Part shown: positions 1,154-63,534 of the stretch, in pieces
How the letters are laid out: each line of letters begins with the position of its first letter
How positions within the stretch are numbered: the stretch's first letter is position 1
IMG/VR virus record: IMGVR_UViG_3300010883_026915
Span: 1 to 64,000 of that record
Source: a virus
Direction: 5' to 3' (one strand)
Length of the DNA: 64,000 bases
Made by a program: the position numbers and the translations under genes
The notes under the pieces: model-generated
Told to the model about the DNA's origin: nothing
The model's input: the letters and a program-made list of their open reading frames with translations, nothing else
The model's database searches: none

Positions 1154-3076
1154 ATGTTTAATTCCCCATTTGGAAAAGAGGATAGCAATATTATAATACC
1201 TGATAGTAGTGATATTATTTTTGTTGCTGATATGTTTGCAGAAGATTATCTTGGCGGAGCAGAACTAACAACAGAGGCGATTATAAATAGCTCGGGAGAT
1301 TTAAAAGTCTTTAAAATAAAATCTTCTGATATTAATATGGATCTATTGTCTGCTGGAGTTGATAAACACTGGATTTTTTCCAATTTTTCACTAATGGATC
1401 CAAATTTAATACCTGCTATAATTGCAAATTTAAAATACTCAATTATAGAATATGATTTTAAGTTTTGCTCATATAGATCTATAGAAAAGCATTTTGCTTC
1501 AAAGAATGTAGATTGTGATTGTCACAATTCAATGCACGGAAAGATGATATCAGCTTTTTATCATGGCTCTCTAAACATATTCTGGATGTCAGAAAGTCAA
1601 AGAGACATATATTTTTCAAGATTTCCATTCCTAGATAATAAAAAATCAACAATTCTTAGCTCAGTTTTTTCAAGTGATTTTTTTGAAACTATTGCCTCCT
1701 TGCAAGACAATAAAAAGAATGAAAGATTTTTAATAATAGGCAGCACATCGTGGATAAAGGGTGTAGAAGACTCAATAGCTTACTGCAATGAAAATAACCT
1801 TGAACATGAGATAGTTTCTGGAGTATCACATAAAGAAATATTAAAAAAGATGTCAGAGTCTAAGGGTTATGTATTTTTACCGCGTGGAGGTGATACATGC
1901 CCAAGAACAGTAATTGAAGCAAAACTGCTTGGCTGTAAAATGATTCTAAATGATAATGTATTGCACAAGGACGAGACATGGTTTAGTACAGATGATGTGA
2001 GTGCTACAGTAGACTGGCTAATGTCAGGTCCATCAAGATTCTGGGCAGAGATCAACAGACAGCTATCTAGGCAGCCTGGAATAAGCGGATACACAACTAC
2101 ATACAATTGTATAGATCAAAACTATCCATTTGAAGCATGCATAGAATCCTTGCTTGGATTTTGTGATCAAGTTGTTATTGTAGATGGAGGATCTACAGAC
2201 GGAACAATTGACAAGCTTAGATCTCTATCTGACAAAAATGATAAAATATTGTTGCATATTCAAAATAGAGATTGGAGCGACAGTAGATTTGCCGTATTTG
2301 ATGGGCTTCAGAAGGCTCTTGCACGAGCAATGTGTACTGGAGAGCTTTGCTGGCAACAAGATTCAGATGAGGTTGTAAATCAAAATGACTATGATAAAAT
2401 TAAACAACTTGTTAGAAAAATTCCAAAAGGAATGGATTTAATAGCATTACCAGTCATTGAATTTTGGGGAAGCAATGGAAAGGTAAGAATAGATTCAACT
2501 CCGTGGAAGTGGAGGCTTTCTAGAAATAGACCACATATAACACATGGAATTCCAGCATCTTTAAGAATGTTTGATGAAGATGGAAAGCTATATGCACTAG
2601 AAGGTACAGACGGATGCGACTACATAAGATCAGATACATATGATCCTATACCGTTTACAAGCTTTTACTCACAAGATGTACATAATTTAAGAATACAAGC
2701 TCTGACAGGTGATGAAAATAGTATTTCTAGATATACAAACTGGTTTTCATCAACATGTATGTCACTACCTCCTGTGATTCACTACTCGTGGTATGATCTT
2801 GAAAGAAAAATTAAAACATATAAAAACTACTGGTCTAAGCATTGGCAAAGTCTTTATAATATAGCACAGGAGGATTTACCAGAAAACAATATGTTTTTCA
2901 ACAAGCCGTGGATAGATGTAACAGATGATGAAATATCTAAGCTATCAGAAAGGCTTGAAAATGAGATGGGTGGGTGGATATTTCATTCAAAAGTTGATTT
3001 TTCAAAACCGACACCATTCATAAAAGTTTCAGAAAGTATTCATCCTGAATGCATAAAGTATTGGCTAAGCAAATGA
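1154..3076 (+). CDS. Two-domain glycosyltransferase (GT-B/GT4-like N-terminus + GT2 C-terminus)
   Basis: N-half: GGAELT and FLPRGGDTCPRTVIEAKLLGC (GT4-like). C-half: YTTTYN...VVIVDGGSTDGT and QDSDE DxD motif (GT2). GAGG RBS upstream. Confidence 0.85.
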   Translation: MFNSPFGKEDSNIIIPDSSDIIFVADMFAEDYLGGAELTTEAIINSSGDLKVFKIKSSDINMDLLSAGVDKHWIFSNFSLMDPNLIPAIIANLKYSIIEYDFKFCSYRSIEKHFASKNVDCDCHNSMHGKMISAFYHGSLNIFWMSESQRDIYFSRFPFLDNKKSTILSSVFSSDFFETIASLQDNKKNERFLIIGSTSWIKGVEDSIAYCNENNLEHEIVSGVSHKEILKKMSESKGYVFLPRGGDTCPRTVIEAKLLGCKMILNDNVLHKDETWFSTDDVSATVDWLMSGPSRFWAEINRQLSRQPGISGYTTTYNCIDQNYPFEACIESLLGFCDQVVIVDGGSTDGTIDKLRSLSDKNDKILLHIQNRDWSDSRFAVFDGLQKALARAMCTGELCWQQDSDEVVNQNDYDKIKQLVRKIPKGMDLIALPVIEFWGSNGKVRIDSTPWKWRLSRNRPHITHGIPASLRMFDEDGKLYALEGTDGCDYIRSDTYDPIPFTSFYSQDVHNLRIQALTGDENSISRYTNWFSSTCMSLPPVIHYSWYDLERKIKTYKNYWSKHWQSLYNIAQEDLPENNMFFNKPWIDVTDDEISKLSERLENEMGGWIFHSKVDFSKPTPFIKVSESIHPECIKYWLSK

Positions 3077-3771
3077 AAGTAGTTTTTATAATACCGTGCT
3101 ATAATGCATCAAGCAACTTAAAAATACTATTTGACTCTCTTTGCTGTCAGAATAATAAAAACTGGTCTGCAATAATAATAGATGACATGTCTGAAGATTC
3201 TACATTTGATACTGCAATATCATTAAATTCTAAAAAAATTGAAGTAATAAAAAACTGTGAGAAAAAATATGCCCTAAAGAATATAGTTGAAACAGCAAGA
3301 AGGTTTCAAGATTCAGATGATACTATAATAGCAGTAGTAGACGGCGACGACTCTCTTTGTAATGAAAACACTGTATCTCTTTTAATCAAAGCATATAAAA
3401 GCAATAGTGATATTGTGTGGACAAAGCACAGATGGGATATAAATAATTTAAACATATCGAAAGAAATACCTCAAAATGTTGATCCATACGCCTGGCCGTG
3501 GTCATCATCACACTTACGAACATTTAAAAGTAATCTTATAAAAAAGGTAAGTGATTTAAATTTTAAAGATCACAATAGAGAATGGTTTAAAAGGGGATAT
3601 GATCAAGCACTAATGCTTCCTTTGTTGCATGTAGCAAGTAATTGGAAATATATTGATGAAGTTTGCTATTTGTATAATATTAACTCTGTTTCAATTCAGC
3701 ATAGAAACTATGAAGAAATTGATCAAATATCTACAATAAATATTGTAAGATCTCGAGGATTTCTTGGGTAG
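3073..3771 (+). CDS. GT2-family glycosyltransferase
   Basis: IIPCYNA...IIIDDMSEDST and VDGDD motifs. Start moved to the ATG at 3073 (ATGA overlap with the upstream stop). Confidence 0.9.
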   Translation: MKVVFIIPCYNASSNLKILFDSLCCQNNKNWSAIIIDDMSEDSTFDTAISLNSKKIEVIKNCEKKYALKNIVETARRFQDSDDTIIAVVDGDDSLCNENTVSLLIKAYKSNSDIVWTKHRWDINNLNISKEIPQNVDPYAWPWSSSHLRTFKSNLIKKVSDLNFKDHNREWFKRGYDQALMLPLLHVASNWKYIDEVCYLYNINSVSIQHRNYEEIDQISTINIVRSRGFLG

Positions 3772-3780
3772 GATAGTTTT

Positions 3781-4701
3781 GTGAATGTTTATCCTATAAA
3801 TTATAACCCAACATCTGACAGCGGCCCAAACTCATTTGCTAGAAGATTATTTTTAAATTTGAAAAACTATAAAGATTTTAATATATCAAACAGCCTTAGT
3901 GATGCTGATATTGAATTTTGCTTAATAGAGTCAAATATTAGAAAGATATCACCAAGAATTACAAGGTTGGATGGAATATACTTTAACAAAGCTCAAGATT
4001 TTAATTTATTAAACACAATAGTTAAGACAAACTATTTACACTCTGACTCTGTAGTATTCCAGACACAGTTTAATAAATTGTTGATTGAGTCGTGGTTTGG
4101 AGAACACAAAAATTCAAGTGTAATAGTAAATAGAGCTGATATGAGAGATATTGAAAAAATACAGCCAGCTGATTTTTCACAAACATTTCCAGGAAAAAAA
4201 GTTTGGTCATGTGCATCTTCATGGAGACCTCATAAAAGACTAAATGAAAATATAAGATACTTTATCGAGAATTCAGATAGTAATACTGTTTTATTAATTT
4301 GCGGCAAGGGTGTAGCAAAAGAGGACTTTTATGGATATGAAAACCTTATAAACAATAGAATATTTTATATTGGTCATTTAAAATGGGAATCTTTGATAAG
4401 TGTGTATAAATCAAGTAGTACCTTTATTCATTTATCATACCTGGATCATTGTCCAAACGTTGTAGTAGACGCTGCAGCATCAGGGTGTAATATTATTTGC
4501 TCTTCATCAGGAGGTACAAAAGAGATATCTTCTCTAAATAAGAAAATAATACATGAAAAAGAGTGGAATTTTGAACCAGTTGAGTTATACAAGCCGCCCA
4601 GGCTTGATTTTAGTAATTTCTCAAATATTTCTGAAGATAATATTAAAACAATAGATGATTCTAAAATAAAATATTATGAACAAATGGAAAAAATATTATG
4701 A
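3781..4701 (+). CDS. GT4-family (GT-B) glycosyltransferase
   Basis: SGPNSF N-terminal loop, WRPHKRL and SYLDHCPNVVVDAAASGC...SSSGGTKEI motifs. Confidence 0.85.
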   Translation: MNVYPINYNPTSDSGPNSFARRLFLNLKNYKDFNISNSLSDADIEFCLIESNIRKISPRITRLDGIYFNKAQDFNLLNTIVKTNYLHSDSVVFQTQFNKLLIESWFGEHKNSSVIVNRADMRDIEKIQPADFSQTFPGKKVWSCASSWRPHKRLNENIRYFIENSDSNTVLLICGKGVAKEDFYGYENLINNRIFYIGHLKWESLISVYKSSSTFIHLSYLDHCPNVVVDAAASGCNIICSSSGGTKEISSLNKKIIHEKEWNFEPVELYKPPRLDFSNFSNISEDNIKTIDDSKIKYYEQMEKIL

Positions 4702-5963
4702 TAAAAAATAGACATCATTCAACATATGAAGACTACGTTGAATTTCAAAAGAAAAAGACTTCCGATCCGGAAAAGAGAAAGAAGTGGCTTGGTGATGAAT
4801 GGGAAACAAAGTTACAAGATTTTAAAAGTGAAATTTCAAAAATATCTCAAGCACTAGATTCATCAAAGAAAGTTTTATGTGTAGGCGCAAGAACAGGACA
4901 AGAAGTCGAAGCATTTAAACAGTTAGGTGTTGAAGATGTAATAGGGATAGATATAGTTCCCAGTCTTCCGCTAGTAAAAGAAGGTGATATGAACTGTATA
5001 GATTTCAAAGATAACACATTTGATATAGTCTATACAAATAGTCTAGAATATGCATATGATATAAAAAATGTAATATCAGAAATTGAAAGAGTTACAAAGA
5101 TAGATGGATTTATATTTATTCAATGTAGAGTTGGCAATGAAGATTCTCAGGCTGAGTACAAGATAGAAAATCCCATATACGATATTTTGACAGTAACAAA
5201 TAGAAGTTTTTGTATGATATCACAACCGTCAGAACCAAACTCTCTTGGCTTAAACTTTGAAATAGTATTAAGAAAAGATAAAAATCTTTCACATTTATAT
5301 GAAAAATATGGAAATATTGAAACAATATCTGTTCCAGATGACTATCTAGAGCTATGGAATGATATAAACTTACCAATACAAACTAGCAAGCTTGATAATG
5401 CAAAGATAAATTCTAAAAAAGCAAGAAATAAAATACTTTCACAACTTTCAAAAAGATCTTATTATCTTACTAGAGTTGCTGAAGTATTTGAATCGAAAAG
5501 ATTTATTGAAGTTGGAACTGCTGAAGGCTGGCAATATTTTACATTTTGTAAATATGTTAAAGATAATTTTGATGATGGAATAGTTTATACATGTGATCCA
5601 AGAGATGTTAGAAATAAAAAATATGCTAGTATGTTCGACCAAGATTCTAGATTTAATTACATTTCAGGAACTAGTAAAGATATAGCATCTAAAAATATAA
5701 AAGCAAATTTCTTTTATATAGACGGTCTTCATGACAAAGATACTGTGATAAGAGATGTATTGACCTTAGAAAATTGTCAGCATAATGATTCTTTAAATAC
5801 ATGGATATTTGATGATTTTGATATAAGGTTTGGATGCTCACAGGATATAATGACATTATCACAGCTTTCAAAGTGTTTCAAAGTATATCACATTGGTGAT
5901 ACTGCCAGTGGACATCAATCACATCAGGTTCTTATGAGGGCAACCTTTCACGGTTCTAGCTAG
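4698..5963 (+). CDS. Tandem class I SAM-dependent methyltransferase (two domains)
   Basis: N-domain: VLCVGARTGQE...GIDIV...FDIVYTNS. C-domain: FIEVGTAEG...FYIDGLH...IFDDF (Methyltransf_24-like). Confidence 0.8.
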   Translation: MIKNRHHSTYEDYVEFQKKKTSDPEKRKKWLGDEWETKLQDFKSEISKISQALDSSKKVLCVGARTGQEVEAFKQLGVEDVIGIDIVPSLPLVKEGDMNCIDFKDNTFDIVYTNSLEYAYDIKNVISEIERVTKIDGFIFIQCRVGNEDSQAEYKIENPIYDILTVTNRSFCMISQPSEPNSLGLNFEIVLRKDKNLSHLYEKYGNIETISVPDDYLELWNDINLPIQTSKLDNAKINSKKARNKILSQLSKRSYYLTRVAEVFESKRFIEVGTAEGWQYFTFCKYVKDNFDDGIVYTCDPRDVRNKKYASMFDQDSRFNYISGTSKDIASKNIKANFFYIDGLHDKDTVIRDVLTLENCQHNDSLNTWIFDDFDIRFGCSQDIMTLSQLSKCFKVYHIGDTASGHQSHQVLMRATFHGSS

Positions 5964-6002
5964 TGCATCAATGAGTATGACAAAAACAACAGTGAGGCTT
6001 TA

Positions 6003-7001
6003 ATGAAAGTTTGTTTTTTAACTTCAAGTCCAAATATTGATATTGGCTCATATAGGATATGGGTTAATGATTTATCAAAAACTATTTCTGATATTGGAAA
6101 TGAATCAATAATTTGCATTAATGACTTGGATGATCAGAAGTACGATGCTATAATACTGTGTAAGTCTGCCTACAAGTGTGCTGACAAAATAAAGGATAAG
6201 TTTAAAAATATAAAAGTAGGAGCTATAAACATACCTTCAAATTATCAAAATCCAAATATAGATTTTGTAATAGTGGGTAGTTATGAAGAAAAGTGTTCAC
6301 TTAGCTTTTATAAAAATGTATTTGTATATCCACTCATAGAAAGACAATTTCAAAATATAGAAAGAAAGATTCATAAAAAAGAAGACATTACTAGAATATG
6401 TTTTCATGGACACTTTCCACATCTTGCCAAGTTTGAACCGTTTCTTAGATCAGCAATAGAGTCTATATCTGGATCTGGAAACAATATAGAGTTAGTTGTT
6501 ATTACCGGTGATAGTAGGTTTGACTGGAAACATGGAAAACCAAAAAATGTTAAAGTAGAAATGCATCAATATGATCAAAAAACAATTACAGAAATTATTA
6601 AATCATGTGATATTGGTGTTGTTCCAAATGTAACAGATATGAGACTTTATAATGGAGATGTTCAAAAACAAAATAGTGTTGAATATGGTCTTTATAGTAC
6701 AGACTACTTTTTAAGATTTAAAAATAAAACAAATGCAGGAAGAGCTTTTGTTTTTTATCAGCATGGAATACCAGTAATACATGATTTAAGCCCGAGTAGT
6801 TTTGAATTTATGGGAAAGTGTGAAAATAAAATTGTTGCACATGATACTGCATCCTGGTGTAGAGAGATACTATACCTTATGGATCACAATACTAGAAACA
6901 CCGTTTCAAAAGAAAATTTTGATGTTTTTAATAATCACTATGATCCACACGATCATGCGAAAAAACTAGTTAAATTTATAGGAGATATACATAATGAGTA
7001 A
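6003..7001 (+). CDS. Putative GT-B fold glycosyltransferase
   Basis: GSYRI N-terminal motif, CDIGVVP, KNKTNAGR...GIPVI resemble a GT-B C-terminal domain; cluster context. Confidence 0.65.
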   Translation: MKVCFLTSSPNIDIGSYRIWVNDLSKTISDIGNESIICINDLDDQKYDAIILCKSAYKCADKIKDKFKNIKVGAINIPSNYQNPNIDFVIVGSYEEKCSLSFYKNVFVYPLIERQFQNIERKIHKKEDITRICFHGHFPHLAKFEPFLRSAIESISGSGNNIELVVITGDSRFDWKHGKPKNVKVEMHQYDQKTITEIIKSCDIGVVPNVTDMRLYNGDVQKQNSVEYGLYSTDYFLRFKNKTNAGRAFVFYQHGIPVIHDLSPSSFEFMGKCENKIVAHDTASWCREILYLMDHNTRNTVSKENFDVFNNHYDPHDHAKKLVKFIGDIHNE

Positions 7002-7758
7002 TAAAGTTGCAGATAGAGGATTTTTATATATAGCATTTGGTGATGCTTTTACAAAAGAGGCACTAATGTCAATAAAGTCTCTTAAGCGGTTTAATGATGA
7101 GCCAGTAGCATTATTCACAGATGCTGAAAAGACACCTGAGATAGATAGTCTTGTAGATGTTTATGCAAAAATTCAACCTACACATACACGCGCAAAAGTT
7201 GACTTTGTCTCGCACTCACCGTTTAACAAAACAGTATATCTTGACTCCGATACTGTAGTTGTAAGAAATATATCTGACATGTTTGACATACTTGATAGAT
7301 TCGATGTAGGATTAACAAATGATTATGCAAGAAAGCGTACAAAGTACTCAAAAATTGTACCAGAGTATGCAGAAATACCATATGCATTTTCAGAAGTAAA
7401 CGGGGGAATTATGGCATATAATTCTTCACTTTCTACTCAGACATTTCTTTCAATGTGGAAAGAGTACTTTTATAAATATTTTAATGAAACAAATGGATGG
7501 GATCAGGTTAGTCTAAGAGTTGCTTTATGGCGTAGCAATGTAAGAATACATCATTTTCCATTTGAGTATAACATAAGAAGCAAGGGCAATAGGGAAAAAC
7601 AGGATAGATTTAAACATGAGTTCGGCGATCAGCACATGGCCCCAAGAGTATATCATCTCCATTATAATAGTGAGGTACACCAGGGAAAATTTAAATATAG
7701 CTTGAGAGACTTTGATGAGTTTGAAAAATCAATAATTGATCAATCTGTGTGGTATTAA
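6994..7758 (+). CDS. GT-A (GT8-like) nucleotide-diphospho-sugar transferase
   Basis: SPFNKTVYLDSDT (DxD), NGGIM, DQVSLR, PFEYN motifs. Confidence 0.8.
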   Translation: MSNKVADRGFLYIAFGDAFTKEALMSIKSLKRFNDEPVALFTDAEKTPEIDSLVDVYAKIQPTHTRAKVDFVSHSPFNKTVYLDSDTVVVRNISDMFDILDRFDVGLTNDYARKRTKYSKIVPEYAEIPYAFSEVNGGIMAYNSSLSTQTFLSMWKEYFYKYFNETNGWDQVSLRVALWRSNVRIHHFPFEYNIRSKGNREKQDRFKHEFGDQHMAPRVYHLHYNSEVHQGKFKYSLRDFDEFEKSIIDQSVWY

Positions 7759-7759
7759 A

Positions 7760-8389
7760 ATGCTATATATTTATGGTGAAAAGCATTGGAATAGTAATGA
7801 TGTTTATAGAAAAAATTTAAGAATTTTAAAAAGATTAAATCTAAATAGAGACTCTATAGTTATCGACGCGGGATTTCATTGCGGTGAAGAACTTCATTAT
7901 TTTAATAATATTGGTAGTATTACTCACGCATTTGAAATAAATAGGTTTCATTGTGAAAACATTTCTGAAATATACAAAGATAATGAAAGAATTAATATTT
8001 ATCAAAAAGCTGTATGGATCGAATATTGTAATATAGATGCATACGAGAAAATAGGAAATCCTCATGCTTCAATGAGTGTTATTTCAGATAAACATAATAT
8101 AGATAAAAATATAAGTTATAAAGTAGAAGCAATAGATCTTTCAGATTTTATTCTTAAGCTTAACAGCCGTGTCAACTTAGTTAAAATGGACATAGAGGGA
8201 GCAGAATATCATGTTATTGAAAAATTAATATATTCAGGTGCAATAGATATGATTGATCTAGTATTATTTGAAGATCATCGGGGGAAAATATCTAAAAAAA
8301 CCAGCCCAGCCTGGCATAGTAAAAGAAAAGAAGTTAAAGCGAAAATTAAAAAATTAAAACTACATGAAAAATTTGGTGATTGGCGGTAG
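7760..8389 (+). CDS. FkbM-family methyltransferase
   Basis: VIDAGFHCG, HAFEIN, KAVW, LVKMDIEGAEY. Start placed at the ATG at 7760, just after the upstream stop. Confidence 0.85.
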   Translation: MLYIYGEKHWNSNDVYRKNLRILKRLNLNRDSIVIDAGFHCGEELHYFNNIGSITHAFEINRFHCENISEIYKDNERINIYQKAVWIEYCNIDAYEKIGNPHASMSVISDKHNIDKNISYKVEAIDLSDFILKLNSRVNLVKMDIEGAEYHVIEKLIYSGAIDMIDLVLFEDHRGKISKKTSPAWHSKRKEVKAKIKKLKLHEKFGDWR

Positions 8390-8423
8390 GTGATTACATA
8401 ATTACTCTATGAGAGGTGATAAT

Positions 8424-9263
8424 ATGGAACCAAAAGAAAAACTTGCTGTGTGTAGTGTTATTAGTAATAGTCATTTAATATATCTTAAAGTTTTTATATA
8501 TTCTATCTTAAGACATAATCCTAAGTTTGATAGAGAGTATGTTGTCTTTTATAAAGATGGAGACATAGCTGAGGTCGACTTTAACCAGTTAAAAAAGATA
8601 TATAAAAATTTTATATTTAAAAAAATACCCACAGAGAAGTATAGAGAAAAAATAGGAGAAACACACGCGAAACAGTCTAAACATTCACAATCAATTAGAC
8701 TGTGGACATACTATAGAATTGAAATGTTCTCACTTATAGAGTATGATCAGATAATATGGTTTGATGTTGATATGCTTGTTATAAACAGCCTAGATGATCT
8801 TTTTAAAATGAGATACAATGAAGGGATTCTTGCCTGCGAAGATATTATTGCAAAGCATATTGTAAAAGATAATAGATATGAAAGAGATCACAAAGTACAA
8901 GGAGGCTTAGTTGTTTTAGGAAAAGATATAATAAGTAGCAATGTGTATAATGATTTGCTAAACTTGCTAAAGCATTCTGACAAATTTAAACTAAATGATC
9001 AATCAATGTTTTCAGAATATTTCGGAAGACAAGGAAAGATAAAGAAATTAAGCATAGTATATAATTGCGGCCAAAAGCTCTACCTAAGAAGACGCGAAAA
9101 TATCAAATTAAATTTAGAAAACACTAAAATAATTCACTTCGCAGGGTCTCAAAAGCCAATGTCTAAAGGCAACCGCCCGGCGAGAAGTGGGTCGCCTCCA
9201 CATAAAATATGGAAAAATTATATGAAAGATATGCTTAGTAAGTATGGATGGAAACAAGGTTGA
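8424..9263 (+). CDS. GT8-family glycosyltransferase
   Basis: YDQIIWFDVDMLV (DxD), NDQS, YN, IIHFAGSQKP. A GAGGTG RBS favours the ATG at 8424 over 8409. Confidence 0.9.
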   Translation: MEPKEKLAVCSVISNSHLIYLKVFIYSILRHNPKFDREYVVFYKDGDIAEVDFNQLKKIYKNFIFKKIPTEKYREKIGETHAKQSKHSQSIRLWTYYRIEMFSLIEYDQIIWFDVDMLVINSLDDLFKMRYNEGILACEDIIAKHIVKDNRYERDHKVQGGLVVLGKDIISSNVYNDLLNLLKHSDKFKLNDQSMFSEYFGRQGKIKKLSIVYNCGQKLYLRRRENIKLNLENTKIIHFAGSQKPMSKGNRPARSGSPPHKIWKNYMKDMLSKYGWKQG

Positions 9264-9270
9264 TTTTTGT

Positions 9271-9303
9271 CATAGATTTATAAAAAACATTTATAAATCT
9301 ATG
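9271..9303. promoter_or_regulatory. Perfect 14-bp inverted repeat (candidate operator or hairpin) upstream of neuB
   Basis: CATAGATTTATAAA-aaaca-TTTATAAATCTATG; the right arm runs into TGGTATCAT (extended -10-like, 9302..9310). Confidence 0.55.
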
Positions 9304-9341
9304 GTATCATGGTTTAATATAAAATTACAAAGAGGAAAAAA

Positions 9342-10178
9342 ATGAATACATTTGTAATAGCAGAAATTGGAATAAACCATAACGGTGATATCGAAATAGC
9401 AAAAAAGCTAATAGACGGAGCATATAAAGCAGGCTGTAATGCTGTAAAGTTTCAAAAAAGAACAATAGATATTGTCTATACACCTGAACAACTAAAGAGT
9501 GAAAGGCAGAGTCCATGGGGTTCAACACATAGAGATCAAAAAGAGGGCCTTGAGTTTGATTTCTCTGAGTATAAGGAGATTGATTTATATTGTAGGTCTT
9601 TAGGTATAGAGTGGTTTGCATCTGCCTGGGATGTTCCTAGTCAGAGATTTCTTTCTAATTTTGATATAAAATATAATAAAATAGCTTCTGCAATGCTAAC
9701 ACATAGAGATCTTTTAATGACAGTGGCAGCTGAGAAAAAGCATACTTTTATTTCTACTGGAATGAGTACTACTGATCAAATATCAAAAGCAATTAAAGTA
9801 TTTGAAAATGCTGGCTGCACTTATGAATTAATGCATTGCAATAGTGAATATCCTATGCCTGCTGAGAAAGCTAATTTAAATGTTATTAATACGCTTAGAG
9901 ATATATTTGATTGTAATGTAGGTTATAGTGGCCATGAAACATGCACAGGAATTAGCCTTGCAGCAGTTGCACTTGGTGCAACATCTATAGAAAGACATAT
10001 AACACTTGATAGATGCATGTATGGTAGTGATCAGGTAGCATCAATAGAAATAAAAAAATTAACATCTCTAGTTAGCGAGATTAGAAAGTTAGAGATTGCT
10101 CTGGGTGATGGTGTAAAAAAAGTAACTGAAAATGAAATCTCAGCAATGAAAAAGCTCAGGATTGTAGACACTCTCTGA
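9342..10178 (+). CDS. neuB: NeuB-family nonulosonate (sialic-acid-type) synthase, short form without the C-terminal SAF/AFP domain
   Basis: IAEIGINHNGD, AVKFQKR, KIASA, ISTGMS, MHCNSEYP, GYSGHE, IERHITLDR...GSD. Confidence 0.95.
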   Translation: MNTFVIAEIGINHNGDIEIAKKLIDGAYKAGCNAVKFQKRTIDIVYTPEQLKSERQSPWGSTHRDQKEGLEFDFSEYKEIDLYCRSLGIEWFASAWDVPSQRFLSNFDIKYNKIASAMLTHRDLLMTVAAEKKHTFISTGMSTTDQISKAIKVFENAGCTYELMHCNSEYPMPAEKANLNVINTLRDIFDCNVGYSGHETCTGISLAAVALGATSIERHITLDRCMYGSDQVASIEIKKLTSLVSEIRKLEIALGDGVKKVTENEISAMKKLRIVDTL

Positions 10179-10179
10179 G

Positions 10180-10899
10180 ATGATTGACAGGTTTAAAATA
10201 CTTGAAGGTAAAAATGTATTAGTAACTGGGGCAACTGGCGGAATAGGATTTTCAATTTGCAAGCTATTTTCATATTTTGGATCTAATGTTTTTGCAACTG
10301 GGAGAAATAAAGACAAGCTTAAATTACTTTCAAGAAGCATTCCAGACATAGTGACATATTGCTCTGATCTTTCTTCACTTAAATCGATTGAAGATTTAAA
10401 TAAAAAAGTATACAAAGATTCATCAGGAATTGATATACTTGTTAATAATGCAGGATTTTTTTCAATAGTCCCTATGGACAAGATTTCAAATATTGAGTAT
10501 AATAAATTTTTTAATATAAATGTAAGAGCTCCAATTCTACTTTCCAGTTTTCACTCTAGTTATATGAAAAATAAATTATGGGGAAGGATATTTAATATAG
10601 GTTCTTCATCTTGTTATAATGGAGGAAAGGATACATCACTTTACTGTTCATCAAAACACGCACTTCTAGGTTTTAGTAAATCGATATCTGATGAATTAAA
10701 AGACTATAATGTGAGAGTTGTGAATCTATCACCAAGTTCCACAAAAACAGATATGGGTAAAGTGCCACTTGTAACACCTCAAGACTATAATACTTTTATA
10801 AATCCAGATGAGATTGCAGAAATGCTAGTATTCCTATGCTGTTTTAATGATAATATGGAAGTTAGAGAGTTACTTTTAAACAGAGTAAGAGTTCAATGA
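10180..10899 (+). CDS. Short-chain dehydrogenase/reductase
   Basis: TGATGGIG, LVNNAG, YCSSK catalytic motif. Confidence 0.92.
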   Translation: MIDRFKILEGKNVLVTGATGGIGFSICKLFSYFGSNVFATGRNKDKLKLLSRSIPDIVTYCSDLSSLKSIEDLNKKVYKDSSGIDILVNNAGFFSIVPMDKISNIEYNKFFNINVRAPILLSSFHSSYMKNKLWGRIFNIGSSSCYNGGKDTSLYCSSKHALLGFSKSISDELKDYNVRVVNLSPSSTKTDMGKVPLVTPQDYNTFINPDEIAEMLVFLCCFNDNMEVRELLLNRVRVQ

Positions 10900-11318
10900 G
10901 TGTAACACTTAGACATATTGGCATTGCTACTGACAAAATTAATGAATCTATTGAGTTTTATTCAAAATTCTTTAATTTTACAATTGTCAATGATAATCAT
11001 GAATCTGGAAATTTTATAAATACAATTCTTGGAAAAAAATGTGAAGTTAGAACAGTAAAAATGACTAATGGAGATTTTATGATAGAGTTTCTACATTTTA
11101 ATTCTTTTCAAAATTCTAAATTTAATATATTCACACTAGGTTGTACACATTTTGCACTAACAGTTAGTGATGTAGACAATATCTTTTCCAGGCTATCTTT
11201 GGAAAATGTAGAGTTCATTAGCAAACCAAAGTTATCAGATACAAAATGTGCAAAAGTATGCTTTTTAAAAGATCCCAATAACAATATTTTTATAGAACTG
11301 GTCGAAGAAATCATATAG
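10896..11318 (+). CDS. VOC/glyoxalase-family protein
   Basis: RHIGIAT...FY, THFALTVSD, FLKDPNNNIFIELVE. Confidence 0.85.
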   Translation: MSVTLRHIGIATDKINESIEFYSKFFNFTIVNDNHESGNFINTILGKKCEVRTVKMTNGDFMIEFLHFNSFQNSKFNIFTLGCTHFALTVSDVDNIFSRLSLENVEFISKPKLSDTKCAKVCFLKDPNNNIFIELVEEII

Positions 11319-11319
11319 C

Positions 11320-12099
11320 ATGAAATTAGGAATAATTCAAGGAAGATTATCACAGCCAGTTCATGGTCATCAAACAACACCTGAAAATTGGCAAAAAGAA
11401 TTTGATATTTTAAAAAAGCTAGGACTGAACCACATAGAGTGGAATATTGACAATAATAAACTTTTTAAAAACCCAATTTTGATATCAGATATAGATTTAA
11501 AAATAATAGAAAAAATTTCCTCTATATGTTTTGATAATTTAGTTACAGATAGAGTATATGATGAAGATTTTTTAAATTTAAACTTGACTAACATTGTTGA
11601 ATTGCTATATACAAAAAATATTTTATCTATAACAATACCATTAGTTGAATCAGCTACTATAAAAAATAGCTCAGATGTATCAAAAATAAGGGCGGCTCTT
11701 GACAATATTTTTGAAAAGTATCCAGAGCTAATAGTCAATATTGAATCTGATGCAAGAATATCTCTTGTATCAGAAGTGCTAGGTTCAAATAAAAATATCA
11801 GATTTACATATGATACTGGTAATATTACAGCATCAAATTTTAATCATGAGAGATACATTGATGCTATTTTTGATAAAATAAATAATATTCATCTTAAAGA
11901 TAGAGTTTATAATCATGGTCCTTCTGTACAATACGGTATGGGAGATACAGATTTTGATGCTATCTTTTCTCAACTTTCAGAATTAAAATATAATAATCTT
12001 TTTACCTTGCAAATGATAAGAGGTGAGACGGGAAAAGAGATGGAATATATTACTGACTTATCTAAAATTTTTAGGAGATTACATGAAAAATATTTTTAG
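11320..12099 (+). CDS. TIM-barrel sugar-phosphate isomerase/epimerase (xylose-isomerase-like fold)
   Basis: MKLGIIQGRLS, HIEW, YDTGN, IHLKDR, GDTDF. Confidence 0.85.
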   Translation: MKLGIIQGRLSQPVHGHQTTPENWQKEFDILKKLGLNHIEWNIDNNKLFKNPILISDIDLKIIEKISSICFDNLVTDRVYDEDFLNLNLTNIVELLYTKNILSITIPLVESATIKNSSDVSKIRAALDNIFEKYPELIVNIESDARISLVSEVLGSNKNIRFTYDTGNITASNFNHERYIDAIFDKINNIHLKDRVYNHGPSVQYGMGDTDFDAIFSQLSELKYNNLFTLQMIRGETGKEMEYITDLSKIFRRLHEKYF

Positions 12100-12901
12100 T
12101 CTAACAGGAAAGGTTGCACTAATAACTGGTGCAGGAGGGCTTCTCGGTCCTAAGCATGCAGAAGCAATACTTGATTATGGCGGAAAGGTAATTTTGACTG
12201 ATCATCATGCTGATCGAGTTAAGGAGAAGGAAGACCAGCTAAATCAAAAATATGGCGAAGGCTCTGCAATTTCATATCACATGGATGTAACAGACCCACA
12301 TTCAGTTAGCACAATTGTTAATCTAGTTGATAGAATAGACATTCTCATTAATAATGCTGCAAAAGATCCCAAAGTGAAAAAAGGCGAAAGTCTAACACCT
12401 TCTAGTAGATTTGAAACAATGACACCAGAATACTGGAATCAAGGTATTGATGCAGCTCTTAACGGAACCTTTTATTGTTCTCAGGCAGTTGCAAATAAAA
12501 TGATATCACAAAGAATAGAAGGTGTGATTCTTAATATAGCTTCTGATCTAGGTGTAATAGCACCCGATCAGAGAATATACAGAAAGCCAGATACACCTGA
12601 AGATATGCAAAATGTAAAGCCGATAACATACTCTGCAGCAAAATGGGCAATTGTAGGAATGACAAAGTACATGGGAGTATATTTCGCTAAGCAGGGAATA
12701 AGAGTCAACTGCCTAAGCCCAACTGGTGTTTATAATGATCATCCGGAAGAATTTGTTAAAAAGTTATCAAATATTATTCCAATGGGAAGAATGGCAGATA
12801 TTAATGAGTACAAAGGAGCAATAGTATTTCTATGCTCAGATGCTAGCTCTTATATGACTGGTGAAAATATGGTTATTGATGGAGGAAAAACAGTATGGTA
12901 G
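12083..12901 (+). CDS. SDR oxidoreductase of the PtmA/flagellin-modification type
   Basis: ITGAGGLLG, LINNAA, YSAAK, IPMGRMA...EYKGAIVFL, DGG. An AGGAG RBS supports the ATG at 12083. Confidence 0.88.
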   Translation: MKNIFSLTGKVALITGAGGLLGPKHAEAILDYGGKVILTDHHADRVKEKEDQLNQKYGEGSAISYHMDVTDPHSVSTIVNLVDRIDILINNAAKDPKVKKGESLTPSSRFETMTPEYWNQGIDAALNGTFYCSQAVANKMISQRIEGVILNIASDLGVIAPDQRIYRKPDTPEDMQNVKPITYSAAKWAIVGMTKYMGVYFAKQGIRVNCLSPTGVYNDHPEEFVKKLSNIIPMGRMADINEYKGAIVFLCSDASSYMTGENMVIDGGKTVW

Positions 12902-13266
12902 ATAAATCAAAACTTCACAGTCCTATCAAATTTGTTAAAAAGGGCTGGGGCTATGAAAAATGGATTGTTAATAAGTCACTTTATTGCGGAAAGCTTTTAT
13001 TTTTCATTTCAGGAAAAAAGTGCTCATGGCACTATCATGTTAATAAAGATGAAGTATTCTATTTACAATCAGGAAGAATGATAGTGCGATATTCAGATGA
13101 GGACTCGCTAGAGACAGCAGAAGAAATTATGCTGGAGCCTGGCATGAATTTCTACATCTATCCTGGATTGAGACATCAAATGGAAGCCCTTGAAAATTCT
13201 GAGCTCTATGAATTTTCAACAGAACACTTTGATGAAGATAGTCATAGAGTTGTAAAAGGCGACTAG
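12895..13266 (+). CDS. Cupin (mannose-6-phosphate isomerase / sugar isomerase-like)
   Basis: KGWGYEKW, SWHYH..KDEVFY, PGLRH cupin metal motifs. Confidence 0.85.
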   Translation: MVDKSKLHSPIKFVKKGWGYEKWIVNKSLYCGKLLFFISGKKCSWHYHVNKDEVFYLQSGRMIVRYSDEDSLETAEEIMLEPGMNFYIYPGLRHQMEALENSELYEFSTEHFDEDSHRVVKGD

Positions 13267-13968
13267 ATGAAAGATATAAAAGATATATGCTTTATAATAC
13301 AGGCAAGACTTAGCTCTGAAAGAGTCCCTAGAAAGATGATGAAACCTTTTGGAGAAACAACACTTGTCGATATAGCATGTAAAAAAATAAATAAATCAAA
13401 AATAATACCGAGAGAAAATTTCTTTTTCTCTGCATATGATAAAGAGATAAAAGATGTAGTAGAAAAAAATAATTTACAAATATTTCATAGAAGCAAAGCT
13501 TCTGCATTTTCTGAAGGACCGATGCAAGAAGTTATGGAATATCATGATAAGCTAAATTTCAAATATTCTGTAGTGATTAGTGCATGCTGCCCAATGCTCT
13601 CTATAGAGTCTATTGATAGTTTTGTTAGGCACTATGTAGATTCTCCGCACGACGGTTTGTTTGCCGTAGTAGAAAAGAAAAATTATTTCTGGGATAGTAG
13701 AATGGAAATGATAACTGAGTGGCCAGATTGTGATGTTCTTAATACAAAAAAAGTAGGAGTAACATATGAGGCAGCACACTGCTTGTATGCTGGGAAAATG
13801 GATACCATAAGATCAGGAATATGGATGGCACCTGTGCCATTTAGTAAAAACAAGCCAGAGCTTTTTGCTATTCCAGAAGATGAAACATTTGATATTGATT
13901 ATAATTGGCAATTTAAAGTTGCAGAATCAATTTATTTAAATGGAATCAAGGATAGCTTTTGTGAATAG
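13267..13968 (+). CDS. NeuA/KdsB-family acylneuraminate cytidylyltransferase
   Basis: IIQARLSSERVPRKMMKPF, CCPML, FDIDY. Confidence 0.85.
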   Translation: MKDIKDICFIIQARLSSERVPRKMMKPFGETTLVDIACKKINKSKIIPRENFFFSAYDKEIKDVVEKNNLQIFHRSKASAFSEGPMQEVMEYHDKLNFKYSVVISACCPMLSIESIDSFVRHYVDSPHDGLFAVVEKKNYFWDSRMEMITEWPDCDVLNTKKVGVTYEAAHCLYAGKMDTIRSGIWMAPVPFSKNKPELFAIPEDETFDIDYNWQFKVAESIYLNGIKDSFCE

Positions 13969-14710
13969 TTTTAAAGATATGAAAGGCTGCTTTAGCGACA
14001 AGAAAGCTCTTATCATTGGAAATGGACCATCACTAGACAATATAGATTTTGATCTATTAAAAGGAGATGACAATATTGTAACTTTTTCTACAAACCAGAT
14101 TGCAGATATTTGTAAAAAAAATATATGGTTTCCAGATTTTTATACTTCTTTTTTCTGTGGACCATTGAGAGGAAGATCATATTCTTTCTCTGATGGAACT
14201 TTAATAAACTACAACGGATCATATGAAAAAGCACTAGAAGCACAAGAGGATATAAAATACATAGTAGAAAATGAAAAAACTACTTGCTTTATTCATGAGT
14301 GGTATCATAAATTTATTTCCAAATCAAATAATACAAGATTTATAAAGCCGCAACTTTGGAATAGACATACACATTTCCCAGAGAATGGATTCGAAAAATT
14401 TAAGATACCTGATAATTTTCTATGGCATAATGCAACAACCCCGCTATTTCAATTATGTTTCTTTTTTGGATTTAAAAAAATTGCTATAATAGGCCAGGAT
14501 GGATATAAAATAGATAGGGAGAATCATTTTTCTAACTATAGAGGTAATGAAGGTACAAATTTTGAACGTGCAAATAGCTCAATAAACTTACTTCACAATG
14601 CTGTCTACTTTTATGCACAAAAAAATAAAATTGATACATTCAACTTGTCAAACATTTCTATATTAAACCAGCATACTAATATTGACCTAGAAAAGTTCGC
14701 AAGTCTATAA
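13940..14710 (+). CDS. Maf/DUF115/GT42-like protein (candidate CMP-nonulosonate transferase)
   Basis: ALIIGNGPSL, FSTN, FFGFKKIAIIGQD, HF..Y, NLS motifs shared with CstII/Maf-type folds. Confidence 0.7.
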   Translation: MESRIAFVNSFKDMKGCFSDKKALIIGNGPSLDNIDFDLLKGDDNIVTFSTNQIADICKKNIWFPDFYTSFFCGPLRGRSYSFSDGTLINYNGSYEKALEAQEDIKYIVENEKTTCFIHEWYHKFISKSNNTRFIKPQLWNRHTHFPENGFEKFKIPDNFLWHNATTPLFQLCFFFGFKKIAIIGQDGYKIDRENHFSNYRGNEGTNFERANSSINLLHNAVYFYAQKNKIDTFNLSNISILNQHTNIDLEKFASL

Positions 14711-14732
14711 GAATAAAGGAGTTATAGGATAA

Positions 14733-50235: not shown

Positions 50236-50294
50236 TTTTAGATTTAATAATTTGCTTACCTATAGTCTCTAATATTTAAAAATGAGGTTTTACA

Positions 50295-50972
50295 ATGAGT
50301 AAGTCTGAAAAAAGGAATACTAGCAGAAAGCTAAGAAGAGCAAAATCAGAATTAAAGTACTTTATCAATCTATTGAATGATATGAGAGAAGAGAGTGATA
50401 ATTATAATATAGAATGGTACTCTGATTTTAATTTTATAGTAAAGGAACTCGATCTTTGTGATAGAGATAAGAAAGATTTAGAATATAAACATTTAGAAAA
50501 AATTACAAACAAAAAAATAAAAATAGAATCAATAGAAGCAATTGAAGAAAAGATTATAAATAATGAAAAACCAGATTGGGCAAAAAAGCTCTATAGAAAA
50601 ATTGCTAAAACATCACATCCTGATAAAACAATAGATACATATAATTCTAAAAAAATGAATGATATTTTTCAAAAAGCTTCAACAGCATTTAACAAAGAAG
50701 ACTTTAACGTACTTATAGAGATAGCTATAGATTTAGAAATTCAAGTAGAAATATCAAATAGAGATCTACTAGAAAAAGTAAACAAAAGAATAAAATCAGC
50801 AAAAAAAGATATAGCTGATATAGAAAATAGTCCTTACTGGCTGTGGGGCGAAAGCTTAGGTATGGATGATTTACGATTAACACTTTTAGAAAAAATTTTA
50901 AGTAATAAATTTTCAACAAAAGTTAAAAGAGAAAAAATTTTAAACGCACTGGGTGTTTTAAATAATACTTAG
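50295..50972 (+). CDS. J-domain (DnaJ-like co-chaperone) protein
   Basis: AKKLYRKIAKTSHPDK...FQKASTAF: HPD motif between J-domain helices II and III. Confidence 0.75.
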   Translation: MSKSEKRNTSRKLRRAKSELKYFINLLNDMREESDNYNIEWYSDFNFIVKELDLCDRDKKDLEYKHLEKITNKKIKIESIEAIEEKIINNEKPDWAKKLYRKIAKTSHPDKTIDTYNSKKMNDIFQKASTAFNKEDFNVLIEIAIDLEIQVEISNRDLLEKVNKRIKSAKKDIADIENSPYWLWGESLGMDDLRLTLLEKILSNKFSTKVKREKILNALGVLNNT

Positions 50973-62284: not shown

Positions 62285-62298
62285 AATAGGAATTTAAG

Positions 62299-63534
62299 GT
62301 GGCAGTATTTAAACAAATAGGACCAGGTGATATATCTACAGCCCAGTCTTTTCTAACACAATTAGTAGATGTAATTGCGTCCGATGTTTCTGGATCTACA
62401 ACCTGCAGGAAGTATCAAGTATTTGTGACTGGTGCAAACGGTCGAGGCGCAGGAGTTACCTCATCTTTGTTTCAAACAGTTTGTGATCAAGATTATACGC
62501 TACAAACTTCTAATGAGATATTAGATATGACAGTAGGGCTTAGAGACGATTCATTGCTGGTCAAATCAGCTTCAACGGGAAAAGATACTGCTGGCAAAAA
62601 GCTTTTCCCATCTGAATCTTTGATGATGAGGGAAAAAATATCAATCTATAGTCAGTATTCTCTTCTATTACTCGGCGCGTCAGGATCTGCTTTTAAATCA
62701 CCTCAGAATTCAACTCTAGAGTCTGACAAGATTGATAATGCAATGTTTATAAGCTTTAAGCGACTATTTTCTAGAGATTCTATTAAGGAAAATAGTTTTG
62801 CACTTGAAGTTGCATCAAGCGGATGTAAATCAGAAGGCTCTTCAGGAGCAGACTCCCGACCAAACATTAATAGAACATCAAACTCAGGTACTATGTTTAA
62901 TGTATATACTGATGCAGGGTTATCGACATCAACATTGGTCAAATTTGGAGGTACATGCAGTGATATTGTCAATGCTACAAATACTGCTGAGAAAGTTGGA
63001 AATATATTCTACCAGCACGGAATAGTAGTTCTCGATATTGAAAAAGTTTTTTCAGGTAGTCAGAAGATATCAGGAACAATTGATGCTGTGACTTCTGAAG
63101 GTAATGGTAAAGTCGTCTTAGGTGCTTTGAACACGCCTGGCTCAAATAAGCAGGCAAAGCTTGTTCCAGATCTAATGGTTTCAGGATCTATAGATGATAT
63201 CTTAGATTTTTACAGGACTACTAGATTTAAGTCAGGCTCTCAGACTTGTTATACCTTTATGAATCGTACAAATATTAATTCAACACTTATATGGTGTAGG
63301 GCAACAGCAGATGAATTTAACTATTCTTCAAATCCTACTTATGTAGATCCATCAACGAATAGAATAAATGTCATAGAAGTAGGGCAAGAAAACTTTCAAA
63401 GTGCTTTTTCATATATAACAACCGTCGGCTTGTATGATCCAAATGATAATTTAGTTGCAATTGCAAAAATGTCTAGGCCGATTGCGAAAAACAATGAGAA
63501 GGATATTACCATTAGGGTAAGGCTCGACTTCTAG
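62299..63534 (+). CDS. Conserved phage tail/baseplate protein (DUF3751-like C-terminal motif)
   Basis: VGNIFYQHGIVV, EFNYSSNPTY, YITTVGLYD..DNLVAIAKMSRPI.K.....IRVRLDF. Confidence 0.7.
   Translation: MAVFKQIGPGDISTAQSFLTQLVDVIASDVSGSTTCRKYQVFVTGANGRGAGVTSSLFQTVCDQDYTLQTSNEILDMTVGLRDDSLLVKSASTGKDTAGKKLFPSESLMMREKISIYSQYSLLLLGASGSAFKSPQNSTLESDKIDNAMFISFKRLFSRDSIKENSFALEVASSGCKSEGSSGADSRPNINRTSNSGTMFNVYTDAGLSTSTLVKFGGTCSDIVNATNTAEKVGNIFYQHGIVVLDIEKVFSGSQKISGTIDAVTSEGNGKVVLGALNTPGSNKQAKLVPDLMVSGSIDDILDFYRTTRFKSGSQTCYTFMNRTNINSTLIWCRATADEFNYSSNPTYVDPSTNRINVIEVGQENFQSAFSYITTVGLYDPNDNLVAIAKMSRPIAKNNEKDITIRVRLDF

Follow-up and report, generated by a model that had tools for sequence, protein, structure and literature searches.

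RESULTS

Glycan genes of the window

Record IMGVR_UViG_3300010883_026915 is a virus contig of 80,014 bp, itself a fragment, and the DNA analyzed here (the window) comprises its first 64 kb. The left-hand part of the window carries an island of 33 glycan genes (positions 1154-28982), about 28 kb long, gap-poor and co-oriented; in the gene map, all 57 open reading frames (ORFs) of at least 80 amino acids (aa) lie on the + strand. By Pfam, NCBIfam and Atlas, 30 of the 31 consecutive genes at 1154-25584 have a predicted glycan role, and these are followed by a nuclease gene and then by two GT4-type glycosyltransferase (GT) genes; the only interruption of the glycan run is this Cas4-like PD-(D/E)XK nuclease. 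Ten genes, starting at 1154 (two domains), 3049, 3781, 6003, 6994, 8409, 13940, 14733, 26563 and 27801, encode a total of 11 GT domains. The original prediction for this DNA had put the island at about 33 co-oriented glycan genes with about 10 glycosyltransferases, and the family searches bear out both counts. The genes of the island, comprising a conserved frame and the variable cassette that lies within it, are as follows.

1154-3076, + strand: left frame gene, a 640-aa bifunctional GT (Pfam GT2; AlphaFold2 [AF2] model)
3049-3771, + strand: GT2 gene, semiconserved after the left frame gene (Pfam)
3781-4701, + strand: GT4 gene, likewise semiconserved after the left frame gene (Pfam)
4698-9263, + strand: cassette part 1, lacking in nearly all relatives (Pfam); double methyltransferase (4698), GT-B-like protein (6003), GT8-like/Nucleotid_trans protein (6994), FkbM methyltransferase (7736) and GT8 (8409)
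9342-15503, + strand: cassette part 2, a nonulosonic-acid module (Pfam, NCBIfam); in order, short NeuB (9342), SDR, VOC, TIM-barrel epimerase-like protein, SDR, cupin, cytidine monophosphate (CMP)-transferase (13267), MptE/Maf-like protein (13940) and GT29-like protein (14733)
15520-19341, + strand: cassette part 3 (Pfam); SIS isomerase, CMP-transferase-cupin fusion, SDR, AroB-related cyclase and a 105-aa ORF
19345-25584, + strand: cassette part 4 (Pfam, NCBIfam, Atlas); class I methyltransferase (19345), epimerase, HddA-like GHMP kinase, GmhA-like SIS protein, HAD phosphatase, short nucleoside diphosphate (NDP)-sugar dehydrogenase-like protein (22770), RfaE-II/TagD-like nucleotidyltransferase, epimerase and sulfotransferase (24961)
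25644-26495, + strand: Cas4-like PD-(D/E)XK nuclease, a core gene (Pfam PDDEXK_1, E 6e-18)
26563-27804 and 27801-28982, + strand: core GT4 pair, the right frame (Pfam)
28979-29308, + strand: core 109-aa protein with an N-terminal transmembrane anchor (hydropathy)

A conserved frame around an exchangeable cassette

When all window proteins were compared by tblastn with 80 related loci, the core genes were found in most or all of them (nuclease, 55 of 80; the two GT4 genes, 68 and 77; the membrane-anchored protein and a 487-aa ORF, 79 each; and the sigma-like gene, a 126-aa ORF, gp25 and gp6, 80 each), and the genes at 4698-21976 were found in 0 to 24. Four longer relatives (G001 to G004) span the whole island site. 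In all four, the left border is the 640-aa transferase (53 to 58% identical) and the right border is the nuclease/GT4 pair; overall, the frame enzymes are 53 to 76% identical across phages whose cassettes differ. Between these borders, G001 to G003 carry 26 to 29 kb of mostly nonhomologous genes, with homologues of the GTs at 3049 and 3781 coming after the 640-aa GT, and G004 has only epimerase-type and dehydrogenase-like genes. The dehydrogenase-like gene at 22770 recurs in 40 of the 80 loci (duplicated in G003) and the gene at 24065 in 24. Several loci have an empty slot, in which the nuclease directly follows the 640-aa gene and the span shrinks to 2.8 kb. The border-to-border distance thus ranges from 2.8 to 30 kb, and the cassette from 0 to about 27 kb (about 22 kb here). 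The other cassettes, which include genes for DegT aminotransferases, a carbamoyltransferase, a B12-radical-SAM protein, a DUF4910/DUF2172 protein and nucleotidyltransferase-kinase fusions, are predicted from this content to specify different sugar chemistries.

By gene order and sequence similarity, then, the island is a cassette slot in a conserved frame, and the predicted members of this frame (a bifunctional GT-B plus GT-A enzyme, a Cas4-like nuclease, a GT4 pair and a small membrane-anchored protein) are present in all relatives spanning the site. A variable island at a conserved position had been anticipated from the window alone, and the gene frequencies, the four spanning contigs and the range of spans all agree with this. 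Many related contigs (loci L002, L054, L078 and others) begin or end no more than 10 kb upstream of the sigma-like gene, in the slot, as expected if population variability breaks short-read assemblies there.

Phage identity and relatives

The 16 kb of the contig past the window encodes a RuvC-like resolvase, a primase, an SbcC-like nuclease, a large terminase, a gp20-type portal (phrog_213, E 2e-75) and a gp21-type prohead protease; the GC content of the record is 0.28 to 0.41. Because it carries the terminase, gp20-like portal, prohead protease and gp25/gp6 baseplate genes, the contig is, on its gene content, a phage fragment and not cellular DNA. Chimeric assembly is ruled out because synteny extends across both island borders in independent related contigs; the concern that the island boundaries might prove cellular or chimeric is thereby removed.

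By portal identity, the closest relatives in culture are Microcystis phage Mel-JY01 (43%) and the Flavobacterium "immuto" phages (40%); cyanophage gp20 portals are only 26 to 27% identical. Another relative is an uncultured phage of 484 kb (LR756508.1). In Mel-JY01 and immuto, the order sigma, gp25, gp6 is retained, and there are no transferases at the site (Mel-JY01 has two GT2 genes elsewhere in its genome); these cultured relatives lack the island, and no cultured member carries it. Relatives of the sigma-like protein occur on 513 IMG/VR contigs, and for the 640-aa transferase more than 2188 homologues of similar length (about 640 aa) were counted, on contigs of up to 285 kb, with another of 226 kb. 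Seawater metagenomes of several studies contain partial matches; the matching Logan seawater-metagenome contigs are short and of low depth, none being useful for bridging the island borders; no RNA data sets were among those listed with matches. CheckV estimated a 160-kb relative (G005) to be 58% complete and, applied to the relatives, indicated genomes of about 280 kb or more, with estimates that are inconsistent among relatives; the "jumbo" status of the phage is plausible. We conclude that the window derives from a large marine myophage, uncultured and abundant, that is distant kin of immuto and Mel-JY01. In the literature on Mel-JY01 and on phage nonulosonic acids, we found no description of this lineage.

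The portal itself (locus L001, 10524-12560; contig 73524-75563) ends in a charged extension of about 210 aa. The matches to all other phage portals stop short of this extension and take in no more than the first 68% of the contig protein.

Sugar chemistry predicted for the cassette

Four sets of donor genes can be distinguished. One comprises the short NeuB and two CMP-transferases, with aminotransferase and acetyltransferase genes not present; a second is a GmhA/HddA/HAD/RfaE-II-type heptose pathway with two epimerases; a third is the AroB-related cyclase with its SIS isomerase, SDR and CMP-transferase-cupin fusion; and the fourth is the short NDP-sugar dehydrogenase-like protein. Tailoring is represented by four methyltransferase domains and one sulfotransferase. 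Several of these assignments fall at or below family thresholds. The NeuB-like protein (9342) scored 260 bits against NCBIfam NeuB_NnaB, below the cutoff of 400, and the AroB-related protein (17924-19027) scored 399.2 bits, against a cutoff of 400, with the "sugar phosphate phospholyase (cyclizing)" model TIGR04425. The unit at 15520-19341 may, to judge from its genes, yield a CMP-activated carbocyclic or otherwise unusual sugar. The dehydrogenase-like protein (22770-23651; 293 aa) covers only profile positions 68 to 297 of 413 and is without the C-terminal uridine diphosphate (UDP)-binding domain.

Among the cassette transferases, the protein encoded at 6003 was assigned as GT-B by Atlas (features 0.97, TM 0.8). 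The 256-aa product of 13940 carries an MptE-like (DUF115) domain (PF01973; E 1.1e-9; 38.8 bits versus a cutoff of 34.6), and its comparison with PDB sequences gave no Maf match; the single PDB sequence match was to a thioredoxin, which we judged spurious. The GT29-like protein (14733-15503; 256 aa) resembles eukaryote-type sialyltransferases, is without a membrane anchor and has a match confined to sialyl-motif L (Pfam E 2e-13; PDB ST6Gal1 E 8e-4, with ST3Gal1 also matching). None of the 80 related loci contains a homologue of it.

Predicted structures of the frame enzymes

The 640-aa left frame protein was modeled by AF2 with a pLDDT of 91.5. Residues 17 to 306 form a complete predicted GT-B fold (Z 20.5 to 6kih over 272 residues; root mean square deviation [rmsd] of 3.1), with many GT4 enzymes close behind. 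Residues 310 to 640 form a GT-A/GT2 domain with a helical C-terminal domain, which folded alone with a pLDDT of 93.2. Among 48,161 representative chains, the best match to this half was SunS (Z 15.3; 218 residues; rmsd 4.3), the next scoring 12.3, and with Foldseek SunS/ThuS came first and accounted for the top six matches. On the strength of the model, this likeness is a lead toward a protein acceptor rather than proof of one. A match of the 640-aa enzyme to GmaR (E 0.02) was too weak and was not used.

Both proteins of the right-frame GT4 pair keep the EX7E motif (GEGFG...LEA). The two are predicted to bind as a heterodimer, with an ipSAE of 0.87 versus 0.00 for the best of three controls, a mark reached by 58 of 80 solved complexes and by 2 of 110 mismatched pairs. 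The contacts agreed between runs to at least 96%, with partner pLDDT of at least 90, and the modeled interface involves the C-terminal tail of the first protein. Since a solved GT-B heterocomplex (GtfA/GtfB) exists, this model may in part reflect memory in the predictor.

Membrane and export components

A Kyte-Doolittle hydropathy scan of the whole 80-kb contig found no protein with two or more hydrophobic segments, and only the 109-aa protein at 28979-29308 showed an N-terminal transmembrane segment. No ORF matched the Pfam families Wzx, Wzy, ABC2, Bac_transf or Glycos_transf_4. The four related islands likewise contained no multipass membrane or export protein, and in the 160-kb G005 no protein had more than four transmembrane-like segments, all such proteins being at most 182 aa. 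The hidden Markov model and hydropathy scans of the island ORFs therefore support the view, put forward in the original prediction, of a glycan-rich island devoid of Wzx/Wzy, an ABC exporter, an undecaprenyl-phosphate transferase and any multipass protein. Export or polymerase genes elsewhere in the phage had been named as something that would redirect the glycan to the host surface; none was found in the available sequence of the lineage, all contigs of which are fragments.

Promoter-like signals

Alignment of the upstream regions of relatives revealed two promoter-like classes, whose assignment to pre-late and late is derived from the genes they serve. The first, resembling sigma70 promoters, is found ahead of the frame genes.

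1080-1108, + strand: sigma70-like promoter candidate at the island head, TTTAAA-17-TATAAT, 10/12 match, in a 92-nucleotide (nt) gap
25599-25627, + strand: sigma70-like promoter candidate of the nuclease gene, 10/12 match, TGnTATAAT conserved in relatives
26507-26534, + strand: sigma70-like promoter candidate of the GT4 pair, 10/12 match, TTTACT-N17-TAATAT conserved in relatives

Upstream of the 640-aa gene, 64% of the relatives have a -10-like hexamer. The second class is the motif ATA[TA]TTA, which precedes 50 of 66 distinct gp25 homologues (76%), at 20 to 50 nt from the start codon. In the contig, 9 of its 39 sites fall within the 1767 nt of intergenic DNA, ahead of gp25 and the genes at 50295, 51046, 61568, 67674, 68097 and 77511, and two more lie just before 71488 (the terminase/portal operon) and 77023. 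G005 has the motif at the same orthologous positions, with 17 of 63 gapped genes preceded by it, versus about 2 expected by chance.

Window 32193 (ATAATTA, gp25), 50272, 51019 and 61516: late-motif candidates, ATA[TA]TTA
Contig 67642, 68059, 71462, 77003 and 77487: late-motif candidates, ATA[TA]TTA, which together with those of the window mark baseplate, head and terminase operon starts

On these signals, the baseplate and head operons would be late, and a pre-late class would take in the island, nuclease and GT4 pair along with the sigma-like gene. No terminator was found between the fiber-like gene and the island, so that late read-through is possible. We also considered the T4-type late promoter TATAAATA and rejected it; its 10 sites in 80 kb are about what base composition predicts, and the site at 1068 is not evidence.

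Flanking genes

The genes on either side of the island are as follows.

3-1061, + strand: left-flank fiber-like ORF, 5'-truncated, rich in Gly, Ser, Thr and Asp
29316-30059, + strand: gp55-like sigma candidate (phrog_234, E 6.8e-4)
Within 29316-31880, + strand: core ORFs of 126 aa and 487 aa, after the sigma candidate
32216-32704, + strand: gp25-like baseplate wedge (Pfam, PHROG)
32724-34577, + strand: gp6-like (gp6/Baseplate_J-like) baseplate wedge (Pfam, PHROG)
34581-63534, + strand: baseplate/fiber module, with large ORFs of 514 to 1460 aa

The left flank had been called a fiber gene. Its composition is fiber-like, and it shows weak repeated matches to ORFs of 2432 and 1946 aa upstream of the same GT in relatives (fiber-like ORFs lie left of the 640-aa gene in G002 and G004); it had no Pfam or PHROG match. 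The late sigma factor proposed for the right flank is a probable identification. In its favor are phrog_234, although with no single stretch passing, a region-2-like motif (KFDPSRG..FSYFNVVAKNW in the family consensus) and a conserved place ahead of the baseplate genes; Pfam and PDB profile searches gave no match, and tblastn to phages found unannotated relatives only. The baseplate/tail flank is supported by its gp25-like and gp6-like genes. From the right frame onward, G005 is collinear with the window, including homologues in the 34581-63534 module, and partial homologues of this module occur among the structural genes of Mel-JY01.

One protein of the module (36127-39804; 1225 aa) contains a ConA-like lectin/glucanase Laminin_G_3 domain (Pfam E 4e-14), which from this match is a possible glycan-binding module on the particle. 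The last 85 or so residues of 62299-63534 recur at the C termini of five consecutive Mel-JY01 structural proteins (34 to 44% identity) and may be a fiber attachment or chaperone module. Between the 487-aa core ORF and gp25, relatives encode a small protein with two to five transmembrane segments (G004, 42088-42942; G005, 11989-12537; G003, 49262-50479; positions are the concatenated coordinates of this analysis); at the same place in the window (31881-32215), there is a 335-nt gap with just a 60-aa ORF. Rfam searches gave no family at gathering score, and no tRNAs were found.

The baseplate/fiber proteins are also enriched in the tripeptide [ST]-G-[ST]. The protein encoded at 34581 has 13 sites, versus 1.6 expected (z 8.9), and those at 36127, 40692, 62299 and 63549 are enriched too.

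DISCUSSION

A soluble glycan factory and its possible acceptor

The well-supported part of our interpretation is that the island is a phage-encoded, soluble, export-free and strain-variable glycan factory, composed of a frame with four GT domains and an exchangeable cassette, and situated by fiber and baseplate genes. The frame enzymes are conserved, whereas the cassettes and the neighboring fibers vary, which makes it probable that the acceptor of the frame transferases is conserved and phage determined. As we picture it, the island enzymes would be made before the late genes, from sigma70-like promoters, and the frame transferases would put a conserved core glycan on a conserved, phage-determined cytoplasmic acceptor, most likely the particle's own fiber or baseplate proteins. 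Enzymes of the cassette would then extend and decorate this core in a strain-specific manner to give an acidic, methylated and sulfated glycan. The cassette would supply the donors (through an NDP-heptose-type path, dehydrogenase/epimerase steps, an AroB-like branch and a route to a nitrogen-free nonulosonate that has two CMP-transferases) and would also bring six further transferases, the four methyltransferase domains and the sulfotransferase.

Virion proteins are our leading guess for the target, held at somewhat less than even confidence; the likeness of the GT-A half of the frame enzyme to SunS/ThuS, the predicted GT4 heterodimer, the MptE/Maf-like protein, the position of the island among fiber and baseplate genes and the precedents in mycobacteriophages, chloroviruses and Megavirinae speak for them. 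The fuller scheme is slightly more tentative again. In it, an abundant lineage of large marine phages would coat its own fibers and baseplate with an acidic glycan, methylated, sulfated and specific to the strain, that is made wholly in the cytoplasm by the frame (the SunS-like bifunctional enzyme and the GT4 heterodimer) and exchangeable cassettes, which include the eukaryote-type GT29 homologue and possibly the genes for a CMP-activated ulosonate that is carbocyclic or otherwise new. Were it true, such a phage "serotype" system would mirror bacterial O-antigen diversity. The original prediction had gone directly to a glycan coat on the phage's own particle; the acidic, methylated and sulfated chemistry is fairly deduced from the enzymes, and the virion as acceptor keeps the status just given.

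Weighing the alternatives

A number of observations weigh against a virion target. The [ST]-G-[ST] tripeptide is an obvious candidate sequon, and its enrichment is real, but it is not specific to island-bearing phages; the baseplate/fiber proteins of Mel-JY01, which has no island at the site, are equally enriched (z up to 8.1). We therefore rejected it as a sequon, and judging from this comparison, it is probably a structural feature of fibers. Nor are there Ser/Thr-rich or mucin-like tracts, no 25-aa window exceeding 52% Ser plus Thr in the virion proteins of G000 (the major capsid gene, being cut by the contig end, is only partly covered). A fold match to SunS shows no function, and the equivalent slot in immuto holds small early-type genes. 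The late motif was also absent (region -50 to -8) ahead of homologues of the 640-aa GT (0 of 11), NeuB (0 of 15), the nuclease (0 of 45) and the first GT4 (0 of 50), an instance at -60 from the 640-aa gene of G001 lying just outside the scanned region, and the GT4 pair, which has no gap to the sigma gene, appears to be cotranscribed with it. Early synthesis is compatible with virion glycosylation because enzymes persist, but it fits host remodeling or DNA modification at least as well.

Some of the same evidence can be read as remodeling of the host envelope, in which soluble enzymes, working on the inner side of the host membrane, would alter lipid-linked intermediates of host lipopolysaccharide (LPS), capsule or teichoic-type polymers for display by the host flippase or ABC exporter, thereby blocking superinfection or grazing. 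We consider this possible but doubtful. No GT family known only from protein glycosylation is present in the island, and its content of GT8, GT2 and GT4 enzymes, heptose, ulosonate and NDP-sugar dehydrogenase genes is typical of LPS and capsule loci; the pre-late sigma70-like promoters would suit an early need; and a conserved membrane-anchored protein directly follows the GT4 pair. The lack of membrane components is compatible with a host-surface target too, because phage enzymes that are soluble can act on host polymers while these are still lipid linked, ahead of their export by the host, and export genes could lie elsewhere in a lineage known from fragments. The prophage enzyme TarP is a precedent, being soluble and modifying wall teichoic acid with no exporter of its own. 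Against this, the available lineage sequences yielded no flippase, polymerase, ligase or initiating polyprenyl-phosphate transferase. Wzx/Wzy systems of the host discriminate in favor of their own repeat units and would accept poorly a foreign glycan assembled by 11 GT domains. Moreover, the frame is conserved across phages that probably infect different strains, which would fit a phage-determined acceptor better than variable O-antigens, and the island sits in the fiber/baseplate region. Remodeling of the host envelope is the published reading for the comparable cluster of pelagimyophages and cyanomyophages (PMC7029224) and for P-SSM2, S-SCSM1 and S-SCSM2R (PMC12801897).

The presence of a nuclease in the frame raises the question of DNA hypermodification, in which GT-B enzymes beside it would glycosylate modified bases in the style of the T4 alpha- and beta-glucosyltransferases, with the cassette providing unusual donors. 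The core block does join GT-B enzymes to a Cas4-like nuclease under early-type promoters, T4 alpha-glucosyltransferase is one of many GT-B fold matches (Z 16.7), and phage GTs that place diverse glycans on DNA have been described (bioRxiv 10.1101/2023.12.21.572611, PMC13326640). We regard this as very unlikely, however: eleven GT domains, methylation and sulfation go far beyond the DNA glycans known so far; the nuclease belongs to a type common in phage recombination; and thymidylate-synthase-type, TET/JBP and C5-methyltransferase genes (PF00303, PF12851, PF00145) were not found in G000 to G005 (about 500 kb of fragments), with the reservation that the PF12851 control gave no match anywhere. 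It is also unlikely, if slightly less so, that frame and cassette are unrelated, the frame having one function and the slot being a permissive hotspot for horizontally acquired bacterial glycan genes carried as auxiliary metabolic genes. Retention of the frame in relatives with an empty slot, the patchy distribution of cassette genes and the frequent assembly breaks in the slot would all be explained in this way. It accords poorly with the finding that the cassettes of all four large islands make up coherent glycan pathways and include transferases of their own, that the cassette is co-oriented and nearly gap-free with the frame, and that frame and cassette encode the same class of enzyme.

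If the glycan is on the particle, a variable sugar coat would have consequences for adsorption, host range, aggregation and grazing, as well as for sinking in the ocean, and virion glycosylation, hitherto a matter of a few actinophages, would extend to a complex and self-sufficient system. If it is instead on the host, this lytic phage would have a superinfection-exclusion device of unusual complexity. In either case, the small conserved enzyme set (1154-3076 and 26563-28982) makes the role of the "LPS genes" of marine myophages testable, and the cassettes are a source of rare sugar pathways.

Comparison with known systems

Established O-antigen and capsule loci of the Wzx/Wzy or ABC type differ from the island in having a flippase, polymerase, exporter and initiating transferase, none of which was found in the fragments of this lineage. 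Among cytoplasmic protein glycosylation systems, the nearest structural relatives of the GT-A plus helical half of the 640-aa enzyme are SunS and ThuS (PDB 7msp, 7msn and 7msk), which glycosylate peptides in the cytoplasm. The phage enzyme differs from these in its low identity (13%) and extra N-terminal GT-B domain, and no glycocin-like precursor gene was seen. Like GtfA and GtfB, the right-frame GT4 proteins are two adjacent GT-B proteins that are predicted (in silico only) to form a heterocomplex, and GtfA (4pqg) is also among the fold matches to the N-terminal half of the 640-aa enzyme (Z 17.1). GtfB is noncatalytic, whereas both phage GT4s keep EX7E; there is no serine-rich repeat acceptor, and the sequence similarity is only remote. 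With the Maf transferases that attach nonulosonic acids to flagellin, the island shares the MptE-like domain of 13940; that protein has 256 aa, not the Maf architecture of about 600 aa with flanking substrate-binding domains, and the contig has no flagellin gene.

Closer parallels are found among viruses. Giant viruses have autonomous, clade-specific glycosylation clusters, as described for the fibril glycans of the Megavirinae (PMC10117803) and in a review (PMC9614988). The chlorovirus (A064R-type) and Megavirinae systems resemble the island in their rare bacterial-type sugars, multidomain soluble GTs, sugar methyltransferases and swappable clade-specific clusters; there, the product coats the particle and the glycans have been characterized chemically, whereas the glycan here is predicted from genes. 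These viruses also have eukaryotic hosts and belong to an unrelated realm. Virion glycosylation by phage enzymes is established only in mycobacteriophages (Freeman et al. 2023, as cited in PMC12619734). These phages likewise encode soluble GTs, located among the structural genes or beside them, with a methyltransferase in some, and reportedly modify their own structural proteins in the cytoplasm with no export machinery. They use one to four enzymes and host-made donors, in contrast to the 33 genes and self-made donors of the island, and their acceptors (the C-terminal tails of capsid or tail-tube subunits) were demonstrated by mass spectrometry, whereas our evidence comes from the genes.

Comparable hypervariable glycan islands are already published for pelagimyophages and cyanomyophages. 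These marine T4-type myophages have a hypervariable "host recognition cluster" (HRC) in the structural region, with fibers, many GTs and LPS-type sugar genes, that was read as serving O-chain modification (Zaragoza-Solas et al. 2020, PMC7029224); in S-SCSM2R, S-SCSM1 and P-SSM2, the transferases number as many as 13 and the "cell-wall" genes as many as 22 (PMC12801897). As in the HRC, the present island is large and nonsyntenic, combines GT with nucleotide-sugar genes (rfaE type, UDP-glucose dehydrogenase type), lies by tail fibers in the structural region (here with fiber-like ORFs on the left and sigma, gp25 and gp6 on the right) and varies between close relatives; the HRC islands also underrecruit. 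The published reading of the HRC as host O-chain modification is, like ours, a proposal. The two differ in that our slot lies between fiber-like genes and sigma/gp25 rather than between VrlC and gp14, and in that the phage belongs to another lineage, as the low portal identity to cyanophage gp20 attests. The island described here further has a defined frame (bifunctional GT, nuclease and predicted GT4 heterodimer), as well as nonulosonate, GT29-like, AroB-like and sulfotransferase genes. What is new here, then, is the frame-plus-cassette anatomy, the SunS-like bifunctional enzyme, the predicted GT4 heterodimer and an unusually rich cassette.

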